From a virus (taxonomy: Duplodnaviria; Heunggongvirae; Uroviricota; Caudoviricetes), in the IMG/VR virus record IMGVR_UViG_2778261354_000002, positions 1 to 11,017 of that record: 11,017 nt of DNA; one strand, given 5' to 3'. Positions 1 through 11,017 of this stretch are shown piece by piece. The notes beneath the pieces are model-generated. The model was not told where the DNA came from, did no database searches, and saw only the letters and a list, made by a program, of their open reading frames with translations. How positions within the stretch are numbered: position 1 is the first letter of the stretch; each line of letters begins with the position of its first letter. The translations under genes and the position numbers were made by a program.

Positions 1-152
1 CTCGTTAGCCCATGAATAACAATCAGAAAGTACCATAACAGACCCGAAGAAAATGAAATATAAGAGAAGATCAACGGGTGAGGAAAAAGTTCAAAAAATC
101 GCTGCCGGGGAGGAAGGAAACTACCGGATGGAAAGAGTCCCCCTAAAGCAGA

Positions 153-201
153 CTGACAGACATCACAAATCCCCGGGTGGGGATTTGTGTATAAGAGACA
201 G
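153..201. repeat. Short palindromic element ending in a Tn5/IS50-type terminal-repeat-like 19-mer (183-201, ATTTGTGTATAAGAGACAG), with a perfect 8-bp inverted repeat (167-174 / 179-186) and a degenerate partner arm (153-170)
   Basis: 183-201 matches the reverse complement of the Tn5 mosaic end (AGATGTGTATAAGAGACAG) at 17/19 and of the IS50 outside end at 17/19. Orientation places the element interior toward lower coordinates and gpI on the flank. Confidence 0.4.
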
Positions 202-753
202 GGTAATGCAGGGGTTCGGTAGCGTCGTGTCCGGGTACACCGTAATGATGTCTCCGTCATGACTCAGTGCGCCGGTAAATACCTCCCCTCTGGCAATGTA
301 CGTCAGTCTCAGCGCCTTCAGGTGACGGCTTACCGGCTTCGCCAGCGCAATCATGCGCTCCATTTCCAGGTAGGTTGTTTCAGTCAGTCCGGCATGTGTC
401 ACATCGATGTTGAGACGAAAACTGCCTGGTGGGTCGTTGTTCTCCCACCACTCTGTAATGCTCAGCAGCGCACCGAACGGGGCGATGGCCCGCCGCATGG
501 CGCTGATGGTTCCCTTGTGGCGGTGTACTGCCCACGACTCACGAATAATCTGCCTGCGGGTTTCTTCCGGCCACGTCTTGTCCCAGCGGTCCACGGAAAG
601 CGCCCACGCCAGCCACGGCAGCAGTGCTTCAGGGCATTCGTCCGCATTCCACAGGGTGTTAAGTTTCACCGGCAGCTGGCTGAATTTTTCCCCGGAACGA
701 TCAACGGTTTTCAGAAAAACACTGGCGGACGGCGGAAGTACCGTGTCACTCAT
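163..753 (-). CDS. I: P2-family baseplate/tail protein gpI (196-aa ORF; the last ~14 codons are read from a transposon-end-like sequence, so the native C-terminus is uncertain)
   Basis: ATG at 753-751 overlaps the gpJ stop by 8 nt. Protein resembles P2 gpI as recalled (WLAWA[LF]SVDRWD, EWWENNDPPG-type motifs) and sits after J as in P2. The 3' end (163-204) coincides with a Tn5 ME/OE-like 19-mer. Confidence 0.8.
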   Translation of the reverse strand: MSDTVLPPSASVFLKTVDRSGEKFSQLPVKLNTLWNADECPEALLPWLAWALSVDRWDKTWPEETRRQIIRESWAVHRHKGTISAMRRAIAPFGALLSITEWWENNDPPGSFRLNIDVTHAGLTETTYLEMERMIALAKPVSRHLKALRLTYIARGEVFTGALSHDGDIITVYPDTTLPNPCITLSLIHKSPPGDL

Positions 754-1642
754 CGGTACCTCCTGCGCGAATCTCTGTGGCGGTGCAGCGCGCCGCCTGT
801 GTCTCGCTGATAACCAGATCCTCCGCAGGTTGTGTTAACTCCACCCGCTGAACCCCGGGGACATGCAGGGCCGCCATGATGGCGGAACGGGCCACGTCGC
901 GACCAATTCTTCTCTGCTCTGCCAGCCAGGCATCCAGTTGTGCCCGTGCGGCCTGAAGTATGGGTTCTGATTCCGGTCCCGGGTAAAAATAGAGTGCCGC
1001 ATCAATCGTGTAGCTGATGATTTCCGCGCTTTTCACTGTCAGCCTGTCTGCCACGGGGCGCACTGTTTCGTCGTTCAGTGCGGTTTTCACTTCGTTAATC
1101 AGTGCTTCGGTCGCTGTTCCGTCCCCGTCGGTGGAAAGTAGCGCAACCACAACTTCCGCCGGTGCCGGGCTGGTTGCTCTGGCATCTGCCACTTTTCCGC
1201 TTGCGCTGCGTGCAAAATACTCATACGCGCCGGAGGGTCCGGCAACGCTCAGCCCTTCAAATGCGCTCTGTATGCGCATTCTGAGCGCGGCGTCACTTTC
1301 CGTTACCGCCGGTGTGGTATCCGTTGCTTCGGTGATAACCAGACGCTGCACATTCATGTTCTCCCCCAGATTGTCCAGGTCGCTTCCGGTTGAATGACTC
1401 AGCATACAGGCCGCCACACCGTCATTGATACGCTGCCGCAGTAACAGCTCCCGCCATGCCATAGCCTGAGCGATGATGTTCAGTGGTTCGGACTCCAGTT
1501 CAATCGCTGCCGCAACGTCATCGCGCATGGCTTCCGGAAAGACGCTAATCATGAATGTCTTTGTCTGCGCCAGGATCACTTCATAGTCCAGCGATTCAAT
1601 GATTGTCGGCTGTGGCAGCTGCGATAAATCAATGGTTGGCAT
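746..1642 (-). CDS. J: P2-family baseplate assembly protein gpJ (298 aa from ATG at 1642; the track's upstream TTG at 1663 is less likely)
   Basis: N-terminus MPTIDLSQLP matches the recalled P2 gpJ start (MPIIDLNQLP); C-terminus ends GGTDE. A GGAGG Shine-Dalgarno lies 5 nt upstream of the 1642 ATG. Position W-J-I is conserved. Confidence 0.88.
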   Translation of the reverse strand: MPTIDLSQLPQPTIIESLDYEVILAQTKTFMISVFPEAMRDDVAAAIELESEPLNIIAQAMAWRELLLRQRINDGVAACMLSHSTGSDLDNLGENMNVQRLVITEATDTTPAVTESDAALRMRIQSAFEGLSVAGPSGAYEYFARSASGKVADARATSPAPAEVVVALLSTDGDGTATEALINEVKTALNDETVRPVADRLTVKSAEIISYTIDAALYFYPGPESEPILQAARAQLDAWLAEQRRIGRDVARSAIMAALHVPGVQRVELTQPAEDLVISETQAARCTATEIRAGGTDE

Positions 1643-1997
1643 CCTTCCCTCCCTGTATATCAACGGAATAATTCACACTTTGCAGGGTGTTCACTATCAG
1701 GTAGTTCATGGATAACACCGCGCCGCCGTTGCTTTTCCACGTCAGATCAATGCCGTTAATGGCAACGCGCGGCTCCCATCGTGTGATGGCGATCACGGCG
1801 GCACTCATACAACGCAGTCGGGTTATTTCATTTGCCGGACTGTCAAGAAGGGCGGGCAGGTTGCTGCCATACTCGCGCCGCATAACACGCGAACCTTCCG
1901 GTGTCAGGAGAATATCCGTGATTGACTGGTTCAGATGGTCGATGTCTGTCAGCGTTCCGGGGCCTGCGTGATTCATGCCTGTGTAACCGGTGCTCAT
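1629..1997 (-). CDS. W: P2-family baseplate wedge protein gpW (gp25/GPW lysozyme-like fold family), 122 aa
   Basis: ATGA overlap with the gpV stop at 1994-1997. Sequence MSTGYTGMN...GSRVMRREYGS resembles recalled P2 gpW (MTARYLGMN...GSRVMRRDYGS). Confidence 0.88.
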   Translation of the reverse strand: MSTGYTGMNHAGPGTLTDIDHLNQSITDILLTPEGSRVMRREYGSNLPALLDSPANEITRLRCMSAAVIAITRWEPRVAINGIDLTWKSNGGAVLSMNYLIVNTLQSVNYSVDIQGGKDANH

Positions 1998-2575
1998 TGT
2001 GGGCCTCCGCTCGTATCGCTACCGCTCTTCACTCCGCTATGTACGTGGGTGTGTACGGTGATGCCGTTTGAGCTCAGGTTGCCGCCGCTGTGTGTCACGT
2101 TGCCTTTCATGGTTCCGCCGTCGGTCAGCTCGAATGTTTTAGTCTTCAGGTGCTGCGTGCATTCCACCTCTGGCGTGTTCAGTGTGATGCGGGTTTCTGC
2201 TGTGATGGTTGCGGTTTTGATACCTTTTGCCGTCAGGTTGCTTTCCTGTGCGTTATAGCGAAATTCCGCACCGTCCGGCGCGGTGATGATCATTTCGTTT
2301 TCCAGTGCGCCCGGTGGTGGATTGTCATTACTGTACAGACTGCCCGCGCTGACGGCGGTTTCCGGATTGCCACCGGGGCAAAGGAGAAGCACCTGCTCAC
2401 CCGGTGATGGCGGGATCCAGATTCTGAATTTTCCGGCCCGTCCGCTGTTCCATCTGATCCAGTTGGTGGTCAGTCCGCCACTCTGAACCCGAACCTCCCA
2501 GGTGTCGGTGTTGATTTCCGTGACCACACCAATCCGCACAATGTTTTCCAGCAATCGCATAAGCTCAATGTTCAT
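1994..2575 (-). CDS. V: P2-family baseplate assembly/spike protein gpV, 193 aa
   Basis: ATGA overlap with the gpS stop (2572-2575). Position between S and W; His-rich C-terminal tip (HTHVHSG) typical of the central spike apex; size near P2 gpV. Confidence 0.82.
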   Translation of the reverse strand: MNIELMRLLENIVRIGVVTEINTDTWEVRVQSGGLTTNWIRWNSGRAGKFRIWIPPSPGEQVLLLCPGGNPETAVSAGSLYSNDNPPPGALENEMIITAPDGAEFRYNAQESNLTAKGIKTATITAETRITLNTPEVECTQHLKTKTFELTDGGTMKGNVTHSGGNLSSNGITVHTHVHSGVKSGSDTSGGPQ

Positions 2576-3207
2576 TTCGCAGCTTTCCCCAGTCCGGCAA
2601 TCACGGTTTCCGTGATTTGCTGTTTGTCTTTAGCGTTCAGGCCCAGCAGTTCGCGCACGGGGTATTTCGTGGCGTTTCCGGGCGAGACAAGGCTCACCTC
2701 ACCGAACTGGTGCACTCTGGCAATGCGCGCGGCCCGCCCCTGAAAACCGACACTGACGCCGCTCGGGTCGGGGGTGATTTTCAGAAAGCGCGGTGTTCTC
2801 AGTTTTTCGAACATGGGTGAGCGACGTGATGCTCTTGCTGCGACGCGCTGCGTGTTAATTTCCAGATAGTCTTCGATATCTGCCTTGTAAAACGTCCGGA
2901 TACCCCCGGCGTCGGTATCGTAGCCGGTAATTTTCCGCCCGAACCGTCCCCGGGATGTGCTCCAGTTTTTCAGGTTTCTTACCTGTCCGTCCTTCCAGAT
3001 GAACTTCACGCCTTTTTGTATGCGCAGTATCCGGCGTTTTCGTTTCTCCCAGGGCTGACCGTCCGGGGATACCTGGCTTCTGATGCGTTTTGTCTGTACC
3101 TGCCGGATGGCCTTACCCACGCTCATTGCCGTGCGCTGAATTCCGGCAGCTGACAGGCCTGAAAGAATGTCCTGAAAGATGGCATCCAGTTCGTGAACGT
3201 CTCTCAT
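2572..3207 (-). CDS. S: Tail completion / virion morphogenesis protein gpS family, 211 aa
   Basis: ATGA overlap with the gpR stop (3204-3207). C-terminal block ARIARVHQFG...RELLGL matches the conserved gpS motif (ARVHQYG...RELLGL in P2 as recalled). Confidence 0.82.
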   Translation of the reverse strand: MRDVHELDAIFQDILSGLSAAGIQRTAMSVGKAIRQVQTKRIRSQVSPDGQPWEKRKRRILRIQKGVKFIWKDGQVRNLKNWSTSRGRFGRKITGYDTDAGGIRTFYKADIEDYLEINTQRVAARASRRSPMFEKLRTPRFLKITPDPSGVSVGFQGRAARIARVHQFGEVSLVSPGNATKYPVRELLGLNAKDKQQITETVIAGLGKAAK

Positions 3208-3674
3208 GCACCGGCCTCTTCTGCGGTTTTCCAGGTCATGTCTTCAAACACCACGCGCCACGCTTCCAGTGCCCGGCTTACCGGTGGCTCACCGATATGC
3301 TCCGCGCTCACCGTGCCGTCATCGTTGCGGCGTACAATCACGCGCTCCCATACCGGGATTTCCAGAAGAATGTCAGCGCTGTCATCATCGTTGATGGCCG
3401 TCGAAAATTTGATGCTTTTGTTTTTCTCCGGATTGAGAAGAAGATCCGGCTGATTCCTGTACAGCCACGCCATGACCGGCAGCATGATGTTGTCGATGCT
3501 TTCGGTGAAGTCCATGACGAACAACACCAGATTGTAGCGGTACAGGAATGAGGGGGATTCTCCGGTGGTTTCAATGCCGCCGGATTCAATGAATACCGTG
3601 AATTTTTCCGGACTGGCTTTACACCACCGGCAATGTGCTGTTAACGCATCGCGGAATGAATTCAGTTTCAGCAT
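3204..3674 (-). CDS. R: Tail completion protein gpR family, 156 aa
   Basis: ATG at 3674-3672. Sequence MLKLNSFRDALT...PVMAWLYRNQPD...EPPVS resembles recalled P2 gpR, and it sits immediately upstream of S. Confidence 0.82.
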   Translation of the reverse strand: MLKLNSFRDALTAHCRWCKASPEKFTVFIESGGIETTGESPSFLYRYNLVLFVMDFTESIDNIMLPVMAWLYRNQPDLLLNPEKNKSIKFSTAINDDDSADILLEIPVWERVIVRRNDDGTVSAEHIGEPPVSRALEAWRVVFEDMTWKTAEEAGA

Positions 3675-3752
3675 GGGGGCACCGTTGTTCGTCTGGTTAC
3701 TGTGACCGGCCTGATGAGATGCCGGTCATTCTGGTTTGTCCTGGTATCACCG

Positions 3753-3920
3753 TCAGTTTAACGAGTTGCTTTCACCTGAACCTGATGCCGACTTTTTGGC
3801 GGCGGCCTCATCTGGTTTTTTGTTCCAGAAGTTTTTAACGGCTTTGTAGCCACCGGATAACAACCAGAGGACGCATACCGCAGTACTGAAATACAACATC
3901 ACCTGTTGAAATAAATTCAT
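3753..3920 (-). CDS. Unannotated small membrane protein, 55 aa (MNLFQQVMLYFSTAVCVLWLLSGGYKAVKNFWNKKPDEAAAKKSASGSGESNSLN); function unknown
   Basis: Hand-translated from the minus strand; below the ORF-track size cutoff. ATG at 3920-3918 is preceded by AAGGAG (3932-3927) with a 6-nt spacer; TGA at 3755-3753. One predicted N-terminal transmembrane helix followed by a Lys-rich hydrophilic tail. Lies in the AT-richer spacer between the esterase and gpR. Confidence 0.45.
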   Translation of the reverse strand: MNLFQQVMLYFSTAVCVLWLLSGGYKAVKNFWNKKPDEAAAKKSASGSGESNSLN

Positions 3921-4008
3921 ACATCGCTCCTTTGCATTGTGTGTATTGGTGAAAATTGCCAGAATGAAAATGACTTCATTAATGTCAAATTCATTAGCTT
4001 TCTTCTTT

Positions 4009-4037
4009 GCCCCTCCCGGATACGGAGGGGCTTTTTT
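4009..4037 (+). terminator. GC-rich hairpin (8-bp stem GCCCCTCC/GGAGGGGC) followed by T6; rho-independent terminator-like, oriented for the plus strand
   Basis: Stem 4009-4016 pairs with 4024-4031, loop 4017-4023, then CTTTTTTG at 4031-4038. It lies 15 nt past the esterase stop. On the minus strand the hairpin is followed by AAAGAAGAAAG rather than a U-run, so it is at most a weak or leaky terminator for the late operon. Confidence 0.4.
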
Positions 4038-4045
4038 GCTTACCG

Positions 4046-5974
4046 TCAGGCTGCCGGGCTGTTCACTTCCACTGTCAGCGTGTCAATCCACGTTTCATAC
4101 GTGTCTGTATTCGACGCATCCGTCAGAATAAGCGTGTTTTCCGCGCCATCGACTTTAAAGCGGGTCAGGGTTGTTTCCGGACCTTTTACCGTATCCACAT
4201 ACGGCGTGAATTTATTCTGTCCCCCGCCCGGATACACCAGTTCAAGCGTATGCCATTCATTGTTCAGCGTGCCAAAACCAGCGATTTTCTCTGATGTGTC
4301 GCCGTTTTTCATAAGGCTCAGCTTGTTGCTCTCGTCTGACTGAAGGAAGAGACCCACCAGGCACGGACTGGTACCTTCCGTTTTACCGACAAATTCAATT
4401 CCCTGAGCATCGCTCTCACTCAGTTTTAAATACATCGCAACGGCAATTTTCTTGTTAACTGCTTCGCCATTCACTTTAAACCGGCAGGTAATTTTGCCGC
4501 CGTTTTTCAGCAGTTCCGCCGCATTTGCCACTTCATGGGTCAGCTTCAGGTTCTGGGTATCGCCCTGGCTCAGTTTCAGCGCCCGTCCGGAAGTACTGGT
4601 ACTGTCCGTCACCACTTCTGCCTTACCTTCGCTCAGCGTCCAGCCCTGTGCGGCATAAGCACCTTCACTTTCTGCACCGCTGTACAGGGTGGTAACGTTA
4701 CTCTTCGGTTTTGCCGGTTCCGGGTAGTTTTCCGTTATATCGCCACCGGCAAGGAACGGTCCGTTACGCCCTGCATGGGTCAGGATTGCGGTGGCTATAC
4801 GGTCCGGCAGGATGCCGCGACGGGCCCATGAACTGAAGTGCATGGCGCGTGTCGGGTTCGTCCAGTTACCCGCCGTGCGTGATGCTGCGCCGTAATAATT
4901 TGCTTCCGGCACGTCCGGATCTTCTGCCGGGTTATTGGTCGGAACATTCGCACCGGTCTCATCCTTCATAAGTTCGACAAAATGCACATTCGGCTCACTG
5001 TTTTTACGGTACGCGCCATAAACCAGGCTGTATTGTGTCGGGTACTGTTGCTTCCACCAGAAGGTGGTGTCACCACATACCCACGGTACGCGAGCCGCAT
5101 CGCCGCCCAGACACTGACCGGCATACGCGGCCAGATCGGTACGGAACTGCTTCACCATGGCCGTAAACAACGCCGGATGCCCCGTGTAACCTGAAGACAT
5201 ACAGTCACCCTCGCCCTGCATCCAGTACACGGCCAGCAGGACGTTTTTCGGATTCTTTTCAAGGGCCGCCTTCGTGCGGGCAATTAAATCCATGTACAAC
5301 GGTTTACCCACACCCCAGCGGGAGGAATCCGCTGTTGCCCCCGTCTCCGGGTTATAGGTGCCCTCAGCACGATCGGTAAACGCAGAGCCGCCACGACTGC
5401 ACGGCACAATCAGGATCCCCGTATTAACCGGAATATAGGGCAGAAGACGTTTGGCAATATGCAGGCCGTGCCCGACACAACCATACTGACCACGGGAAAG
5501 GTCCGCGTTGGGGTGATTTTTGGCACTCATGTCTTCAACGTCATGGAGACAGTGATCGGCCTCAATCACATCGTTGTATTTACAGGCAGCACCACCCGGT
5601 CGGACCACACTGCGGCGGGCCAGCTGCTTAATGCGTGGATCGGGACGGTCGTAGCTGTCAGGCAGGGGCATACCTTCGCCGGTTGCCATATTGTTTGACT
5701 GACCTGCGGTGACCAGCACGTAGTAGTATTCCGGCTCCGTTGTTGATGCCGGAATGACGGTGGTCGTGCCTTCTTCATCAACAACAATTTCCGGCTCGTC
5801 TGTCACGGGCTGGTCTCCGGTCATGGCCTGCATGAGGTACCACGGTACACCCGGCTCTGACGCCACCTGTGCGTCACCCTGAAGCTGCCAGCCCAGCGCC
5901 AGACGTTCGTTAACCTTTTCCGCCAGTTCCTGACGGTTCATGGCGGTAATCAACTCAAAGTGTTTTTTGCTCAT
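4046..5974 (-). CDS. Prophage cargo: NanS-p-like sialate O-acetylesterase (DUF1737-like N-terminal domain + SASA/SGNH esterase core + C-terminal lectin-like domain), 642 aa from ATG at 5974
   Basis: AGGAG Shine-Dalgarno 7 nt upstream of the ATG at 5974-5972 (the track's longer 680-aa frame has no SD and overlaps the spanins). Motifs LVTAGQSNNMATGEG (SASA nucleophile block) and VYWMQGEGD (conserved WxQGE[SG]D block). No signal peptide. Length and domain order match phage-encoded NanS-p esterases of E. coli as recalled. Not part of the P2 backbone. Confidence 0.8.
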   Translation of the reverse strand: MSKKHFELITAMNRQELAEKVNERLALGWQLQGDAQVASEPGVPWYLMQAMTGDQPVTDEPEIVVDEEGTTTVIPASTTEPEYYYVLVTAGQSNNMATGEGMPLPDSYDRPDPRIKQLARRSVVRPGGAACKYNDVIEADHCLHDVEDMSAKNHPNADLSRGQYGCVGHGLHIAKRLLPYIPVNTGILIVPCSRGGSAFTDRAEGTYNPETGATADSSRWGVGKPLYMDLIARTKAALEKNPKNVLLAVYWMQGEGDCMSSGYTGHPALFTAMVKQFRTDLAAYAGQCLGGDAARVPWVCGDTTFWWKQQYPTQYSLVYGAYRKNSEPNVHFVELMKDETGANVPTNNPAEDPDVPEANYYGAASRTAGNWTNPTRAMHFSSWARRGILPDRIATAILTHAGRNGPFLAGGDITENYPEPAKPKSNVTTLYSGAESEGAYAAQGWTLSEGKAEVVTDSTSTSGRALKLSQGDTQNLKLTHEVANAAELLKNGGKITCRFKVNGEAVNKKIAVAMYLKLSESDAQGIEFVGKTEGTSPCLVGLFLQSDESNKLSLMKNGDTSEKIAGFGTLNNEWHTLELVYPGGGQNKFTPYVDTVKGPETTLTRFKVDGAENTLILTDASNTDTYETWIDTLTVEVNSPAA

Positions 5975-5978
5975 TGTG

Positions 5979-6290
5979 TTACTCCTGTGGTGGCAAATCC
6001 TCTGCCCGTTCAGCTCTCTGTCTGTCCAGCCACGCAATGGCTGCTTTGTCTGCGTTGCATGTATCCAGCGCAGCCAGTAACTGGTCACTCCATTCTGTTA
6101 TCCGGTACCAGGTCACCGGTCGCTCCAGAAAGGGGATCGGCGTCTGCCTTGTCAGTACTTCCGGCACCGGCTCGTAAACGAGTCTGGTTTTCAACGTGTG
6201 CGATGTGCTGTTGCAGGCGCTCAGTAACAGCGCCGGGAGGATAAGCGCCAGCACACTTATCGTTCTGTACAGCCTTTTGCATTGCTTCAC
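5979..6290 (-). CDS. o-spanin (Rz1/LysC-like outer-membrane lipoprotein), 103 aa, apparent GTG start
   Basis: Lipobox LLLSAC after a basic, hydrophobic N-terminus (MKQCKRLYRTISVLALILPALLLSAC). The reading frame starts inside the i-spanin gene in another frame and extends 106 nt beyond its stop (overlapped architecture). The only in-frame start is GTG at 6290. Confidence 0.7.
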   Translation of the reverse strand: MKQCKRLYRTISVLALILPALLLSACNSTSHTLKTRLVYEPVPEVLTRQTPIPFLERPVTWYRITEWSDQLLAALDTCNADKAAIAWLDRQRAERAEDLPPQE

Positions 6291-6528
6291 GCCGTTGCTC
6301 TCCTTCGGTGATGCGTTGCTGATCCAGGATCCGGATGATGCTTATCACCCGGGAAAAATCGCTGTAAGCCTCGCGGACTTCCTGCATGGCGGCCCGGTTG
6401 TCCTCGATGATGTCCATCATCTGCTCCCGTCCCAGGCTTTCCCGTCCCTTGCGGTATGCCTCCCAGCCGACCAGGCCGCATAACAACAGGGTGATAATCA
6501 GCCAGGTGATGATTACCGGTGCCCTCAT
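6085..6528 (-). CDS. i-spanin (Rz/LysB-like), 147 aa from ATG at 6528
   Basis: ATGA overlap with the endolysin stop (6525-6528) and AGGAGAAGG upstream. N-terminal transmembrane helix (VIITWLIITLLLCGLVGW) followed by a charged, coiled-coil-like periplasmic domain. The track's longer 155-aa form from 6552 lacks an SD. Confidence 0.78.
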   Translation of the reverse strand: MRAPVIITWLIITLLLCGLVGWEAYRKGRESLGREQMMDIIEDNRAAMQEVREAYSDFSRVISIIRILDQQRITEGEQRREAMQKAVQNDKCAGAYPPGAVTERLQQHIAHVENQTRLRAGAGSTDKADADPLSGATGDLVPDNRME

Positions 6529-7064
6529 GTTGCCTTCTCCTGCGTGCACCATTTCCGGAAGTCGTCCCGCCGGTTAAACAGCCCCTGTGAATAGCGTCCG
6601 CCGCTGTTCACAAAGTCCGTCAGCCGGTTGCACATTGCCTTCCAGTTCCGGCTTTGTGCGTGCTTCCATATGGTTGTTCTGTGCATCCGTCCGTCACGCC
6701 CCTTAAACCACATAAGGCCGTGACATCCCAGATTGAACGCCGCATCCGTCATGGCCTCAAAATGCCGCTGTGGCATGTCTCGGCCCCTGAAATTCTGATT
6801 GATGCAGTTTTCCGCCCGTCGCAAATCATTCACCCAGCGACCGGCAACCTCCTGTTGGGTGTGGTGGCGGTCGGGCACGTTTCCCGTTGAGCCGCAGCCC
6901 ACGGTTTTCACCCCGGCGATGTCCCTGTACGGAACGGCCCGGCAGTCTTCCCAGGTGGCGATTTTTTCCTGTGCCTCCTGTGACGTTCTCAGCGCCCCGG
7001 GGGCCAGCGAAAAACCGAGCGCGACAATGGCGGCAACGGCATAGCGTTTAATCTGTCCTGACAT
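6525..7064 (-). CDS. SAR endolysin (T4/P21-type lysozyme, GH24-like), 179 aa
   Basis: N-terminal signal-anchor-release-like segment (YAVAAIVALGFSLAPGAL) followed by the catalytic E-x8-D-x5-T spacing (WEDCRAVPYRDIAGVKT). Start overlaps the holin stop by 17 nt. Confidence 0.85.
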   Translation of the reverse strand: MSGQIKRYAVAAIVALGFSLAPGALRTSQEAQEKIATWEDCRAVPYRDIAGVKTVGCGSTGNVPDRHHTQQEVAGRWVNDLRRAENCINQNFRGRDMPQRHFEAMTDAAFNLGCHGLMWFKGRDGRMHRTTIWKHAQSRNWKAMCNRLTDFVNSGGRYSQGLFNRRDDFRKWCTQEKAT

Positions 7065-7338
7065 GTGATTCCCCGTCTGCTTTCAGGGCTTCCAGAGCGC
7101 GCTTCTCGCTGCCTTTTAGTGGGCGGTTGTGCATCTGGTCGGCTATGCGTGCAATAAGCTCGTTTCGGCGTATCTGGGCCTGCTCCATGCGCCTTCTGTG
7201 CACCCATCCCCGCAGCAGTGAGAGCGCCCCCAGAATCAGCCCGGCCAGCGCCATCTTCTCGCTCATGGTCATCACACCGATACCGGTGACCATGACTGAC
7301 GTGAAATACGTGATGTGGTCGCAAATTCTCTGAAACAT
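7048..7338 (-). CDS. Putative holin (pinholin-like, two hydrophobic segments and a highly charged C-terminus), 96 aa from ATG at 7338; the track's 7350 start is a GTG
   Basis: ATG at 7338-7336 lies 2 nt after the gpX stop. Hydrophobic segments YFTSVMVTGIGVMTM and MALAGLILGALSLLRGW, then an R/K/E-rich tail. Sits directly upstream of a SAR endolysin at the P2 gene-Y position. Further in-frame Met codons at residues 16, 23, 25 and 29. Confidence 0.6.
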   Translation of the reverse strand: MFQRICDHITYFTSVMVTGIGVMTMSEKMALAGLILGALSLLRGWVHRRRMEQAQIRRNELIARIADQMHNRPLKGSEKRALEALKADGESHVRTD

Positions 7339-7340
7339 AA

Positions 7341-7541
7341 TCAATCCCACAACTGGACGGTTTCCCGCTGCCTGTCCGGTATGATTTCCGGCAACTCCAC
7401 TTCCTGACCTGCCGCCAGAAACACGGTGTTGCTCAGCCCCGGATTGGCAGCCAGGACGCGCTCCGTCACGCCTTTTGTCATGCCGTAATGACGCTGGCAG
7501 AGTAAATCAACGGTGTCGTCATCCTGTGCTCTCACTTTCAT
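7341..7541 (-). CDS. X: P2-family tail protein gpX, 66 aa
   Basis: Start overlaps the gpL stop as TAATG (7543-7539). Sequence MKVRAQDDDTVDLLCQRHYGMTKGVTERVLAANPGL...VELPE matches recalled P2 gpX (...CVRYYGRTEGVVETVLAANPGL...VELPD). The track's longer form from 7610 is an antisense-overlap artefact. Confidence 0.85.
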   Translation of the reverse strand: MKVRAQDDDTVDLLCQRHYGMTKGVTERVLAANPGLSNTVFLAAGQEVELPEIIPDRQRETVQLWD

Positions 7542-8035
7542 TAAATCAGCTCCGCATAAATCCGTTTCACGCCCCGGATGTCCGATATGGCCCACCGTGC
7601 ATCGCGCCACATGTCTTCAATCTGCATGTTCAGCGCGTCGGCCCGTCTGTCGCCTTTGTCGGTGGTGTCCACATCCCGCGAACGCTCAAGAACGCCCGCC
7701 CGTGTGAGTGCATACACCGCCCGGCGGTACCGGTGCACATTCACGCTCTCACCGTTGATTTGCGCGGCCGGAACGTCTGTCAGCGTCGACCGTCCCGCCG
7801 CCTCCTGCTCCTGCTTCCAGCCCTCAAGCTCTGCCGTCACGTGTGCCACGGCTTCGGTGGCAGCATGAAGCAGGCGCGAGGTGGTGGTGCGTCCCGGGAT
7901 GCGCATGGCAAGGCGCAGCTCCTTCAGCACGATATCCGGCCAGAACGCTCCGGCACTGACGCGCGCCTCTCCGTCGTCGGTATCTGTCGTGTCATCCGTG
8001 GCGTCGTTCACGCGGGTTCTTGCTACCATGCTCAT
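7541..8035 (-). CDS. L: P2-family head completion/stabilisation protein gpL, 164 aa
   Basis: AGGAG Shine-Dalgarno 9 nt upstream of the ATG at 8035. Position between M and X; size close to P2 gpL (about 169 aa). Confidence 0.8.
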   Translation of the reverse strand: MSMVARTRVNDATDDTTDTDDGEARVSAGAFWPDIVLKELRLAMRIPGRTTTSRLLHAATEAVAHVTAELEGWKQEQEAAGRSTLTDVPAAQINGESVNVHRYRRAVYALTRAGVLERSRDVDTTDKGDRRADALNMQIEDMWRDARWAISDIRGVKRIYAELI

Positions 8036-8144
8036 GGTGGTTTTCTCCTGTAGATCAGGCGGTGGGCGACCGGTGAAAGTAACCGGGAGTCAGCGATCAG
8101 ATCACCGGTCGCGCCGCCTGCCGACGAGGTCGGGTCCGGTGTTA

Positions 8145-8969
8145 TCAGGTCGCCTTTCGTGCCGGTTTTGCGGCGGTTTTTTTCGTGGTCCGTCTGCCTG
8201 CGGCTTTTCTGGCCGTCGCTTTTGTACCCGGCTTCTGGCGCCCTGATGTTGATTTCGTTTTGCTTTTCTCTTCTGCCGTTTTTTCCGGTACCGGCTGCAC
8301 CTTTGACACTTTTCTGGCCAGCGTGGCGATTTCACGTTTTACGCCCGCAGCCGGATTGATGCGCATGGCTTCACGCAGCAGATTAAGCGACACGGTCAGG
8401 TCTCCCGTGCTGCCTGATGCGCGCCGTGAAAATGCCCGCGCCTTGTGTAGTTTTGCCCGAACCTGATCCGGCATGTCCTGGTCGCATACCAGAGCATCCA
8501 GCTCGTCCAGCGTACGGATATAACCGGATAAGTCGGTTTCACTGTTGGCGGCGGCTTCTGTCAGTACAACTTCGGCAATTTCTTCGGTGAGAACGGTCGC
8601 TGCATCCCGCCCGAAGTTGTCCGGCAGTGCCAGCCGGTGACGGATCACGTACTCACCAATGCGCAGCGCCAGCGGGTAATCCCGGCAGTCAATGGCCCAC
8701 ACCATCATGGTGGTAATCACTTCGTCCTGGCGTCCGCTGTCGCCTGCCAGTGTGCCGTCAATCCAGGCTTCAAAATCCGGTAAAAAGTGTTTTTTCAGCT
8801 CCGCTTTGGCGATGTTCGACTGCACGCCTTTGAGTTGCATCTGTGCCATGCGTAGCTGATGAAGAACCTGCTCATGCGCTGTGCGCGCCCTGGTCTCTTC
8901 GCGGCTGTCTGGTGTCACTCCCCGGCGCGCAGCCTCGCGCTGAAGATATCGTTGTGCCGGTGTCAGCAT
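8145..8969 (-). CDS. M: P2-family terminase small (endonuclease) subunit gpM, 274 aa, with a Lys/Arg/Thr/Ala-rich basic C-terminal tail
   Basis: AGGAG 8 nt upstream of the ATG at 8969. Conserved block DMPDQVRAKLHKA and AGVKREI as in recalled P2 gpM; basic low-complexity C-terminus is also present in P2 gpM. Confidence 0.85.
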   Translation of the reverse strand: MLTPAQRYLQREAARRGVTPDSREETRARTAHEQVLHQLRMAQMQLKGVQSNIAKAELKKHFLPDFEAWIDGTLAGDSGRQDEVITTMMVWAIDCRDYPLALRIGEYVIRHRLALPDNFGRDAATVLTEEIAEVVLTEAAANSETDLSGYIRTLDELDALVCDQDMPDQVRAKLHKARAFSRRASGSTGDLTVSLNLLREAMRINPAAGVKREIATLARKVSKVQPVPEKTAEEKSKTKSTSGRQKPGTKATARKAAGRRTTKKTAAKPARKAT

Positions 8970-8990
8970 GTGTTCGACTCCTGATTAACC

Positions 8991-9010
8991 GGCGGGCACG
9001 TGTGCCCGCC
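8991..9010 (-). promoter_or_regulatory. GC-rich perfect palindrome (GGCGGGCAC-GT-GTGCCCGCC) in the N-M intergenic spacer; candidate mRNA stem-loop
   Basis: 9-bp arms 8991-8999 and 9002-9010 are exact reverse complements. Located 9 nt after the gpN stop and 22 nt before the gpM start; no U-run follows on the minus strand. Confidence 0.3.
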
Positions 9011-9018
9011 ATGATGCA

Positions 9019-10113
9019 TCACGCCTGTGCTTCAGGCTCTTCCTTGTCTTCCGGATCTTCACCGGCGAAAGAAATGCCCTCAATCAGCGCACACTTGCCG
9101 TAGTCTTCCACCACGTAGCAGTCGTTCATGGACTGATAGGTGGCAATACGGTTGTACTCAGGCTCTTCACGGATGAAGCGACGCAGTGACCCTTTCTGGA
9201 AGTAGACCGAAAGGTTGCTGAACGACGTGATCAGCATGGTGTCGTCCGGAAAGTACGGCGCAAAGAAGGTCGGCAGTGCGCCAATGGTGCGGGAGGCAGT
9301 GATCAGCTGTCCGGCGACCAGTTCCGTGTTCGGGTTGGTGGTGCTGATGGCGTTAATCATAGGCAGACGCAGCGTGTTGAACAGGTTGCGGCCCATGACA
9401 ACAACCAGATCCGGGGCGTCCTTGTGCCACTCGTCCAGTACGGATGAACGAATGTCGTTGACCATGGCGTCAGCGTTGCCGTAGTCGCCTTTTGCAACCA
9501 GTTTGTTTTCATGATCGCGGCGGGTCAGCGTCATTGCCTTCACGACACGCGTCGCGGCGTGTTCACGGATGTGTTTCAGCCACCCGGTGTTCACGTCCTG
9601 AAGTTTCGGGTTGGCGGAACGATCGGAAATGATGGCGTGTGACTCACCGTTAAAGCCAATCATGATACGGTCCAGCGCAATCTGTCGGGTGATTTGGGCA
9701 CTCAGCAGTTGCTGGAAGTTTTTCTGGCTGCTCCACGCGTCAATCTGTGCGTAGCTGATGAAGGTGTCGTAGTTCACCTGTTCGCAGCGATAACGACGTG
9801 ATGCCAGATCAGAGACGTCAGCGGGATTGCGTCGCTTCACGCCGTCACTGGTTGAGTTGGTGCTGGCGATGGGGCCAATGGTATTCACCAGGACTTTTTC
9901 ACCTTCCTGATCGTCAACGCCGATGCTGTTGATTTTTTTCAGCAGTTCGTCGCTCTCTTTGATGGCGTTTTCCATCTTCTGGTGAACAGCCGGATCAACG
10001 CTGAAGGTTTTCCCCAGTCGTTCCACGGTGGTTTCGGCAATCTCTGCCTGGCGTGCAAGATAGGCCTCAAGATTGTTGCGGCCTTCGCGAGAAAGCGTTA
10101 AGCGGTTTCCCAT
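9019..10113 (-). CDS. N: P2-family major capsid protein gpN, 364 aa
   Basis: Blocks GPIASTNSTSDG, IMIGFNG, DLVVVMGR, DCYVVEDYG align with recalled P2 gpN (GSIASTTDTAGG, IMAGFNG, DLVVIVGR, DYVVEDYA). GAGGA Shine-Dalgarno upstream of the ATG at 10113. Confidence 0.9.
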   Translation of the reverse strand: MGNRLTLSREGRNNLEAYLARQAEIAETTVERLGKTFSVDPAVHQKMENAIKESDELLKKINSIGVDDQEGEKVLVNTIGPIASTNSTSDGVKRRNPADVSDLASRRYRCEQVNYDTFISYAQIDAWSSQKNFQQLLSAQITRQIALDRIMIGFNGESHAIISDRSANPKLQDVNTGWLKHIREHAATRVVKAMTLTRRDHENKLVAKGDYGNADAMVNDIRSSVLDEWHKDAPDLVVVMGRNLFNTLRLPMINAISTTNPNTELVAGQLITASRTIGALPTFFAPYFPDDTMLITSFSNLSVYFQKGSLRRFIREEPEYNRIATYQSMNDCYVVEDYGKCALIEGISFAGEDPEDKEEPEAQA

Positions 10114-10128
10114 GGTTTGGTTCCTCTG

Positions 10129-10965
10129 TTAAAAATCAGCCATGGCGTGGCTGTTGCCACCGGTTGCAGTAAAGCGATGTTCTTTATCTGCATCTTCGGT
10201 TTTCAGCTGCGCCTTCAGTTCAGTCAGTTCGCGGGTCAGGGCTTCCAGTGATGCCTTGTTACTGCGCTGTTGTTCTTCCATCGTATGGAAGCGTTCCAGA
10301 AGGCCGGCCTGTTCCGTGGCAATGCTCTCGACGGCTTCACGCACGTGAGCGAACTGCTCGCTGTCCGTGTTACGGGTTTTGCTGATGAGCGCCATGACGC
10401 GCGAAAACCATTTCCGGCTTTCTTCGGTGCTGTCCTGGACGGATGCCACCAGTTCCGCTTCCATGCATTCGGTGAACATGGCAACTTCACCTGTGCGGTT
10501 GCTGAACGTCATGATGCTGGCGCGCTGCTGGGCGGCAAATTTCAGTCGTTCGGTGCCGAGACTGGCCGGGGTGTCTGTCATTGCCAGGCCGATTACGTAA
10601 GGCCCGCCAACCGCTTCAATGTTGGGTTCAAGCTCGATGCTTGAGTAGATTTTCTTGCCGTCATTCAGCATTTGCGTCATGCGGTCGGTGGGCTCGATTT
10701 CGGCATACAGTGCGGTGCGACCGGCCAGTTTGCCCTCCGTGATTTCTTCGGTGGACAGAGAAATCACATCGCCCACGGCACTGAATTCACTGGACGGCAT
10801 ACGTGAAAGCATGTGCTCCACGTTCACCCGCGATCCCCACACGTCCGGGTCGTAGTTCTCTGCGGCCTGACGCAACATCTGGCCTGAAATTTCACGTCCG
10901 TCGATGGTTGTGCCCGAGACGGCGACGCGGAATTTTTTACGTACTGGCGCGTTTTTGGATGCCAT
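10129..10965 (-). CDS. O: P2-family capsid scaffolding protein gpO, 278 aa from ATG at 10965
   Basis: N-terminus MASKNAPVRKKFRVAVSGTTIDGREIS parallels recalled P2 gpO (MAKKVSKFFRIGVEGDTCDGRVIS). AAGGAG 7 nt upstream of the ATG at 10965; the track's longer form from 11001 has no SD. C-terminus ends TGGNSHAMADF. Confidence 0.88.
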   Translation of the reverse strand: MASKNAPVRKKFRVAVSGTTIDGREISGQMLRQAAENYDPDVWGSRVNVEHMLSRMPSSEFSAVGDVISLSTEEITEGKLAGRTALYAEIEPTDRMTQMLNDGKKIYSSIELEPNIEAVGGPYVIGLAMTDTPASLGTERLKFAAQQRASIMTFSNRTGEVAMFTECMEAELVASVQDSTEESRKWFSRVMALISKTRNTDSEQFAHVREAVESIATEQAGLLERFHTMEEQQRSNKASLEALTRELTELKAQLKTEDADKEHRFTATGGNSHAMADF

Positions 10966-11017
10966 GAAAAGTCTCCTTTCCGGAATTGTGTATTCCATCA
11001 TGCGGGGGGGAGGGGGG

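Follow-up and report, generated by a model that had tools for sequence, protein, structure and literature searches.

The insert between lysC and R

We analyzed an 11,017-nucleotide (nt) stretch of viral DNA (positions 1 to 11,017 of IMG/VR record IMGVR_UViG_2778261354_000002; the whole stretch is called the window below, and coordinates refer to it unless another locus is named), in which a gene for a NanS-p-type sialate O-acetylesterase lies between the lysis genes and tail gene R of a P2-family E. coli prophage. Pfam and PHROG assignments gave late genes that are all on the minus strand and follow the P2 order, namely, O (scaffold), N (capsid), M (small terminase), L, X, holin, lysozyme, LysB/LysC, the insert, R, S, V, W, J, and I. 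This gene order, together with P2-family Pfam domains, annotated relatives, and the P2 reference record, scores the backbone as P2 family (Peduoviridae). The final backbone lysis gene 5' of the insert is lysB (6085 to 6552, minus strand), which encodes an Rz-like i-spanin (PHROG 214, E 9e-23) with 76 to 90% amino acid (aa) identity to the LysB proteins of P2-like relatives. The Rz1-like o-spanin gene lysC (5979 to 6290, minus strand; Pfam LysC PF23793, E 4e-12) is embedded in, or overlaps, lysB and ends with a TAA stop codon at 5979 to 5981. On the other side, the first backbone gene 3' of the insert is the tail completion/terminator gene R (3204 to 3674, minus strand; Pfam P2_Phage_GpR, E 4e-40). 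From the lysC stop (5979) to the R start (3674), 2,304 nt that are absent from P2 are interposed, in agreement with the roughly 2.3 kb estimated in a first-pass annotation of this DNA. That annotation had also noted that R directly follows lysC in P2; indeed, the P2 reference record shows lysC overlapping R, with nothing in between, and R comes directly after lysC in many close relatives as well.

The insert consists of an intact esterase gene of 642 aa (4046 to 5974, minus strand; PHROG 143, E 3e-253) and a 55-aa open reading frame (ORF) for a DUF1378 membrane protein (3753 to 3920, minus strand). By reading of the sequence, the esterase ATG lies 4 nt past the lysC stop, and its ribosome-binding site, AGGAG (5982 to 5986, minus strand), falls within the final lysC codons. 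A GTG at 6088, which would give a protein of 680 aa, was rejected as the start, since the homologues all begin with MSKKHF and the ribosome-binding site precedes the ATG at 5974. The small ORF, recognized earlier as a membrane protein gene, matched DUF1378 (PF07125, E 1e-17; PHROG 494), and hydropathy predicted a single N-terminal hydrophobic transmembrane helix followed by a basic C-terminal tail. Between the two genes lies an AT-richer spacer (3921 to 4045, minus strand), a feature also listed in the annotation: the GC content is 0.45 to 0.46 over positions 3600 to 4200, compared to 0.55 to 0.60 in the flanks. A hairpin had been placed past the small ORF, but the strong one is located between the esterase gene and that ORF, 3' of the esterase stop codon (4009 to 4031; G+C rich, −19 kcal/mol by terminator scan and folding). 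The spacer before R (3675 to 3752, minus strand) holds a second, weak hairpin at about 3700 to 3727, which lacks a T-run and is statistically unremarkable (fold z-score, −0.5). In the strong hairpin, the T-run is on the plus strand only, antisense to the genes. A role as a sense terminator was therefore dismissed: the hairpin is not expected to end the late transcript efficiently or ahead of R and S, and as an antisense-oriented terminator, it could instead keep antisense transcripts from entering the late operon. A search of positions 3200 to 6600 detected no sigma-70-like promoter.

The esterase combines three domains, each with a Pfam match above the gathering score: DUF1737 (PF08410; residues 3 to 50, E 9e-7), SASA (residues 87 to 282, E 7e-11), and DUF6645 (PF20350; residues 489 to 604, E 3e-13). 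In sequence searches of the PDB, residues 79 to 399 matched NanS (3PT5; E 3e-111, 54% identity) and residues 427 to 639 matched the NanS-p C-terminal domain (6YP6; E 2e-32). Accordingly, we divide the protein into a DUF1737 head (residues 1 to 55; 5810 to 5974, minus strand), an SGNH/SASA catalytic core (residues 79 to 400; 4775 to 5740, minus strand), and a C-terminal DUF6645 lectin-like jelly roll (residues 427 to 642; 4049 to 4696, minus strand). An AlphaFold2 model built from 37 homologues (mean pLDDT, 77) predicted a small beta-alpha-beta-beta head, disordered linkers, an alpha/beta core, and a beta-sandwich. With this model, Foldseek retrieved 3PT5 (TMt 0.87) and 6YP6 (TMt 0.86), and the C-terminal domain also resembled sialic-acid- or ganglioside-binding lectin domains, such as the sialic-acid-binding 2W68 (TMt 0.70). 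Thus, the DUF1737-like N terminus, SASA/SGNH core, and lectin-like C terminus read from the letters alone were supported by both of the approaches that the annotation had proposed, Pfam searches and structure prediction, and by the PDB and Foldseek matches. The catalytic motifs are GQSN (91 to 94, with Ser93), WMQGEGD (QGEGD at 253 to 257), and HFSS (with His379); Ser93, Glu255, and His379 are invariant in the 37-homologue alignment, and Asp257 is nearly so. Ratios of nonsynonymous to synonymous substitution (dN/dS) indicated purifying selection on all three domains. The lectin-like domain is the most variable part, with a dN/dS of 0.15 to 0.45 and 27 to 39% identity between P2-type copies. 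The N terminus is hydrophilic, and no signal peptide was detected by hydropathy, as had been noted earlier.

Every criterion that can be applied to a sequence assigns the protein to the NanS-p family. It resembles the NanS-p proteins of Shiga toxin (Stx) and other lambdoid prophages (933W L0105/z1466; phi24B vb_24B_21, or gp84) in its DUF1737, SASA/SGNH, and DUF6645 architecture, with about 50% identity overall, in the lack of a signal peptide, in its late-operon position beside lysis genes, in the adjacent DUF1378 gene, and in a C-terminal domain that matches 6YP6. Unlike them, it resides in a P2-family myovirus backbone, is downstream of the spanin genes rather than upstream of the holin gene, and carries a separate head subtype, whose loop (EPGVPWY, compared to ITPY or TAGYGAEF) is 4 residues longer. 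The chromosomal NanS (YjhS, 3PT5) has a similar catalytic domain in which GQSN, QGE.D, and HFSS align; however, it possesses neither the DUF1737 head nor the lectin domain and is not phage borne. Classical P2 accessory loci, namely, the old/tin region, Z/fun, and orf30, are comparable in that a nonessential gene is situated between essential late genes of a P2-type genome, but the insert described here occupies a different site, the lysC-R junction. Orf30 of P2 sits between S and V in the reference record; in the window, the S stop and V start overlap (ATGA, 2572 to 2575), and Orf30, the terminator, and the activator-binding region, which in P2 separate the O and V operons, are not found between these genes. 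The O and V late operons may be fused in this lineage.

Ancestry of the esterase gene

Domain-wise comparison gave different closest relatives for the head and for the rest of the protein. The head, of a P2-family-specific subtype defined by domain-wise identity and by its loop EPGVPWYLMQA, shares 96, 85, 73, and 64% aa identity with those of the P2-like loci L003, L012, L002, and L007, respectively, compared to 31 to 33% with the lambdoid alleles compared and at most 45% with any lambdoid copy. In contrast, the catalytic core is 98.8% identical in aa and 96 to 100% identical in nt to that of L004, a lambdoid non-Stx prophage of the bovine E. coli strain UTAK-6, whereas it is 62 to 70% identical in aa to P2-family alleles. 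Likewise, the linker (residues 401 to 426) is 100% identical to that of the UTAK-6 allele and 28 to 32% identical to those of P2-family relatives, and the lectin domain shares 74% aa identity with L004 and 27 to 39% with P2-family relatives. At the nucleotide level, a megablast match (H68, 90%) and a sliding-window profile delimited a patch in common with the lambdoid prophage (3936 to 5737, minus strand), with a left breakpoint at about 5740 to 5760, where the conserved catalytic core begins, and a right breakpoint at about 3936 to 3965. Identity to the lambdoid sequence was 96 to 100% as far as about 4650, reduced midway through the lectin domain, and 81 to 94% across the gene end and the hairpin, the latter being conserved at 94% between the window and the donor-like L004; from about 3950, the window is again closest to P2-family relatives. 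The UTAK-6 esterase (WP_042963972.1) is thus nearly identical to that of the window in core and linker, as is the hairpin, while its head is only 31% identical, and it resides in a usual lambdoid context, Q-tRNA-esterase-DUF1378-DUF826-holin.

By these comparisons, the window esterase is a chimera of a P2-specific head and a lambdoid enzyme and lectin body. The simplest reading would be a long-standing P2-family NanS-p whose body was recently replaced through recombination with a co-resident lambdoid prophage. The segment from about residue 79 through the downstream hairpin would have been swapped with a lambdoid allele by homologous recombination, with homology arms supplied on the left by the start of the conserved catalytic core and on the right by the DUF1378 region. 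Among the available sequences, the UTAK-6 allele appears to be the closest proxy for the donor. The annotation had pictured lambdoid cargo in a P2 phage; this view needs to be divided, as the gene has a P2 head type of its own and is not a simple transplant, yet its catalytic and lectin parts and the downstream hairpin are lambdoid, acquired by intragenic recombination. Of the 29 P2-head loci with complete genes, only the window (99%) and one other (90%) have a core that matches a lambdoid allele at 90% identity or more.

DUF1378 travels with nanS-p in both backbones, being located 3' of nanS-p in lambdoid prophages as well, but it is missing from the P88-like lineage described below. It is decayed in L003 (5927 to 6019) and L014 (5337 to 5429), the prophages nearest to the window's backbone, where an unannotated remnant of about 31 codons is left. 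On the basis of this absence and decay, DUF1378 is dispensable in the P2 context. In another hybrid, L024 (IMGVR_UViG_2529292998_000004), a P88-like capsid, lysis genes, and an esterase with a P2-type head (7001 to 8878) are followed by a lambdoid GpA-type terminase (about 13148) and not by R, S, and V, which suggests that nanS-p repeats are able to mediate gross rearrangements between prophages.

Distribution of the arrangement among P2-family prophages

The annotation had regarded the arrangement as unfamiliar and had proposed a comparison across P2-like prophages. In a collection of 5,426 complete E. coli genomes, it proved to be frequent. The window's own prophage type was found in 16 complete genomes at 86 to 90% nt identity. 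Megablast searches of the GenBank phage collection with the window and with the insert gave no near match, and the lineage is known only as a prophage within genomes. In two members that were examined, L002 and L003, RefSeq annotates a "DUF6645 domain-containing protein" between lysC and the R homologue, and a "DUF1378 family protein" in L002 only. A second lineage, the P88-like prophages with an M15 endolysin and a DUF2570 spanin, has the lysC-esterase-R junction in at least 376 of the 5,426 genomes, including sequence type 131 (ST131) strains and the O104:H4-type strain 55989. The esterases of this lineage (WP_000202148.1 and WP_000202153.1, from ST131 and 55989) occupy the same junction and have the same P2-type head, with 64% identity to that of the window; they differ in being spliced in with overlapping stop and start codons, in ending 23 nt before R without DUF1378, and in having a core that is 67% identical to the window's and not lambdoid-like. 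Three more P2-family lineages, whose capsid proteins are 82 to 97% identical to that of the window, carry the esterase and DUF1378 ahead of R, one of them in 12 complete genomes. In total, five P2-family lineages have the esterase at the same position. Contigs from IMG/VR gave the same picture: all 35 that were recovered with a P2-type head have the gene in a late region of the P2 family, preceded by X and lysis genes. A P2 capsid gene is detectable upstream in 33 of them and R downstream in 21, the remainder being truncated contigs or the hybrid L024.

With an orthologous gene so common at this junction, it could be asked whether the esterase is a backbone gene of the P2 family rather than an accessory. 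Its constant position in five lineages and its family-specific N terminus would fit that idea. Nonetheless, P2 and P88-like prophages of the UTI89 type contradict it, as lysC and R of UTI89 overlap just as those of P2 do, with no esterase and nothing between the two genes. The same contrast is seen between L007, which has the esterase at the lysC/R junction, and L008, which does not. At most about 667 further genomes matched the P88-like query only in part, with the listed examples stopping at the end of lysC; up to about two-thirds of the genomes that match the P88-like lysis cassette therefore appear to lack the esterase. We consider a backbone gene very unlikely. The gene is orthologous and common, as such a gene would be, but its presence is polymorphic, and the esterase is a frequent presence/absence accessory at a fixed lysC-R site of E. 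coli P2-family prophages, neither backbone nor rare.

Many contigs and "phage" records break off within the esterase gene, including L006 (ON470623, "vB_EcoM-705R2"), L013, L025, L026, L030, and others; ON470623 also holds 11 kb of host chromosome. These ends are likely short-read assembly breaks at the multicopy nanS-p, and such breaks may help explain why the arrangement has received little notice. In two P88-like loci, L022 (5019 to 5876) and L023 (7001 to 7858), an internally deleted esterase of about 285 codons, in which the head and part of the core are joined to the end of the lectin domain, directly precedes R. A full-text literature search found no paper that connects NanS-p, DUF1737, or sialate O-acetylesterase with P2-like phages, although two key subscription papers were not covered. 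Outside E. coli, a scan of one genome per species with the pattern P[WF]YLMQA[ML] gave no confirmed match, with the caveat that a single pattern may miss divergent copies; within the set of species representatives scanned, the P2-type head seems to be limited to E. coli. When the 60-aa head was used by itself as a protein query, a single candidate came back, the word index being poorly suited to such a short sequence. L047 (IMGVR_UViG_2825473869_000006, 7001 to 8965), a divergent P2-family contig with a capsid protein 69% identical to that of the window and a different endolysin, encodes a head in which a lambdoid-like helix (GWQPYG) is combined with a P2-type loop (APGTPFYLMQA), and with this contig, the P2-type lineage might reach hosts other than E. 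coli.

Enzyme delivery and the DUF1737 head

Taken together, we consider it likely that the NanS-p-family sialate O-acetylesterase and its DUF1378 companion form an accessory, "moron"-like module at the lysC-R site that is expressed late and released at lysis. The ATG 4 nt from the lysC stop, the ribosome-binding site inside lysC, and the absence of a sense terminator before R point to transcription and translation with the late O-type operon, which encodes the capsid, the lysis proteins, and then R and S. The position directly after the spanins of a P2-family backbone and the missing signal peptide, both recorded in the first-pass annotation, are in line with this reading: the enzyme would reach its substrate only after holin, endolysin, and spanins had lysed the cell. 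The SGNH core, with Ser93 and His379, would then de-O-acetylate mucin sialic acids of the Neu5,9Ac2 type, with the C-terminal lectin-like jelly roll presumably serving as its guide. Activity on Neu5,9Ac2 would be expected from the 54% identity to NanS and from published NanS-p assays; both esterase activity and a growth benefit have been reported for lambdoid NanS-p (PMC8065619, PMC5923452). The enzyme might instead act on bacterial surface glycans, such as O-acetylated O-antigen or K1-type polysialic acid, and so aid adsorption or release, a possibility that has been raised for NanS-p (PMC8065619). A variable lectin domain, as quantified above, is what would be expected of a protein that tracks variable glycans. 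Nevertheless, the core is closest to NanS, whose characterized substrate is Neu5,9Ac2, and the gene is dispensable in sister prophages; hence, we regard surface glycans as an unlikely target.

Release at lysis is plausible, but attachment to the capsid through DUF1737 is a rival mode of delivery. In the podovirus phi24B, cryo-electron microscopy and proteomics identified the NanS-p homologue gp84 as a virion protein, in which DUF1737 hexamers plug the central pore of the face-center hexons of a T=9 capsid via a Tyr42 loop, and the remainder of the protein is later cleaved off (bioRxiv 10.64898/2026.04.10.717836). In the homologue from 933W, Tyr42, Gly54, and SISSP are all found just as that preprint describes them. 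By analogy, the window protein would decorate P2-type virions: DUF1737 would plug gpN hexamers and display the esterase and lectin, aiding adherence to or penetration of mucus. Proteolytic processing may follow, as in phi24B, so that this explanation differs from release at lysis only in how the enzyme is delivered. The predicted head structure is compatible with it. In the AlphaFold2 model, the head comprises strand 5 to 11, helix 14 to 26, and strands 30 to 38 and 46 to 53, that is, one helix and three strands in the same predicted beta-alpha-beta-beta topology as phi24B-type DUF1737, and the aromatic Tyr46 lines up with the corresponding Tyr of lambdoid classes, in a loop that differs from theirs and is four residues longer. 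A profile search of the PDB with the head returned nothing meaningful, the copy used being without the phi24B models. Moreover, the P2-type loop, (E/A)PGxP[WF]YLMQA, is invariant across P2-family lineages with capsids diverged to 62% and is present even in L047; the dN/dS of the head is 0.06 to 0.09 where dS is unsaturated, as low as that of the catalytic core; and the head was retained while the rest of the gene was swapped. Judged by these sequence patterns, the head is functional and backbone specific.

To relate head type to capsid type, we typed the head-morphogenesis module in about 120 loci and compared it with the DUF1737 head class. The heads of lambdoid NanS-p proteins (IMG/VR loci L054 to L254) fall into discrete classes that differ almost only at the loop spanning residues 34 to 47, which reads AITPYTLMQA in class a and STAGYGAEF in class b. 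All 42 loci with a P2 capsid module have P2-type heads, and a lambdoid-type head occurs in none of them. The 933W-type module is accompanied by class b (23 of 23 loci), the DUF1441-type module by class c/d (8 of 8), and the lambda-like module by class a (28 of 28), while 15 of the 16 loci with an HK97-like module have class a and one, L082, has class b. A perfect association of head type with capsid module was withdrawn, as it was an artifact of leaving this fourth, HK97-like lambdoid module untyped. Identical class a heads thus occur with two head modules, and together with L082, this indicates that head type is not strictly matched to the capsid. As class a is common to lambda-like and HK97-like modules, DUF1737 is not a marker of phi24B-like particles, contrary to what the 2026 preprint suggested.

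The 42 P2-capsid loci favor decoration, but the lambdoid exceptions speak against it, and linkage alone would explain a P2-specific head, given that P2 and lambdoid backbones have no homology 5' of the gene. Furthermore, gp84 is reported to bind only to flat face-center hexons of a T=9 capsid, and the T=7 capsid of P2 type is not known to have such a hexon. Capsid display on P2-type virions is therefore possible but is not our leading reading. That the P2-specific head is a capsid-binding adaptor fitted to the gpN, T=7 shell is a tentative proposal, on balance doubtful.

Several points weigh against release at lysis as well. A purely soluble enzyme set free with the lysate does not explain why the DUF1737 head is retained and selectively constrained, and a search for enzymatic or expression data on P2-family copies found none. 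To our knowledge, even the lambdoid enzymes have no established benefit for the phage or its host. In addition, the window begins with the end of an IS4-family insertion sequence, ISEc13 (1 to about 202; 98 to 100% identical to copies in 1,685 of the 5,426 E. coli genomes), which abuts and truncates baseplate gene I (163 to 753, minus strand). The I ORF runs into the insertion sequence, and the gene is without about 56 C-terminal codons relative to the closest prophage, L002. The window prophage is probably tail defective, and productive lysis may no longer deliver the esterase. This truncation also bears on whether the gene is a functionless passenger, a recombination scar kept through exchange between nanS-p repeats in a decaying prophage. 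The window chimera and L024 demonstrate that nanS-p is a recombination substrate, and the degraded DUF1378 of L003 and L014 would fit decay. However, the ORF of 642 codons is uninterrupted and retains every catalytic residue, its three domains are under purifying selection, and the gene is intact in hundreds of genomes, which makes a passenger quite unlikely. An accessory enzyme released at lysis thus stays our preferred reading.

NanS-p esterases have been discussed as fitness or virulence factors of Stx and other lambdoid prophages. Relative to the descriptions that we found, what is new here is a P2-family NanS-p lineage, its frequency, its own DUF1737 subtype, and its fixed lysC-R location, along with the finding that P2-family and lambdoid prophages exchange the catalytic and lectin body. 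This parallel, P2-family-specific lineage, apparently unremarked in the literature searched, is carried by about 7% of the complete E. coli genomes, among them those of pandemic ST131 and O104:H4-type strains. Consequently, counts of nanS-p alleles per strain in work on enterohemorrhagic and enteroaggregative E. coli may include P2-type copies, as 55989 carries one. The enzyme-plus-lectin body moves between myovirus and lambdoid prophages by intragenic recombination, whereas the backbone keeps its small N-terminal head. If the head does anchor the protein to the capsid, hundreds of P2-family prophages of E. coli, among them those of ST131 and O104:H4-like strains, would produce virions that display a sialate O-acetylesterase and a lectin, with the enzyme and lectin cassette swapped freely with lambdoid phages behind a capsid-specific "plug." P2-like capsids would in that case gain their first decoration protein, and DUF1737 would be a modular, capsid-class-specific anchor. 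Temperate E. coli phages of unrelated morphology may thereby display the same mucus-active enzyme.

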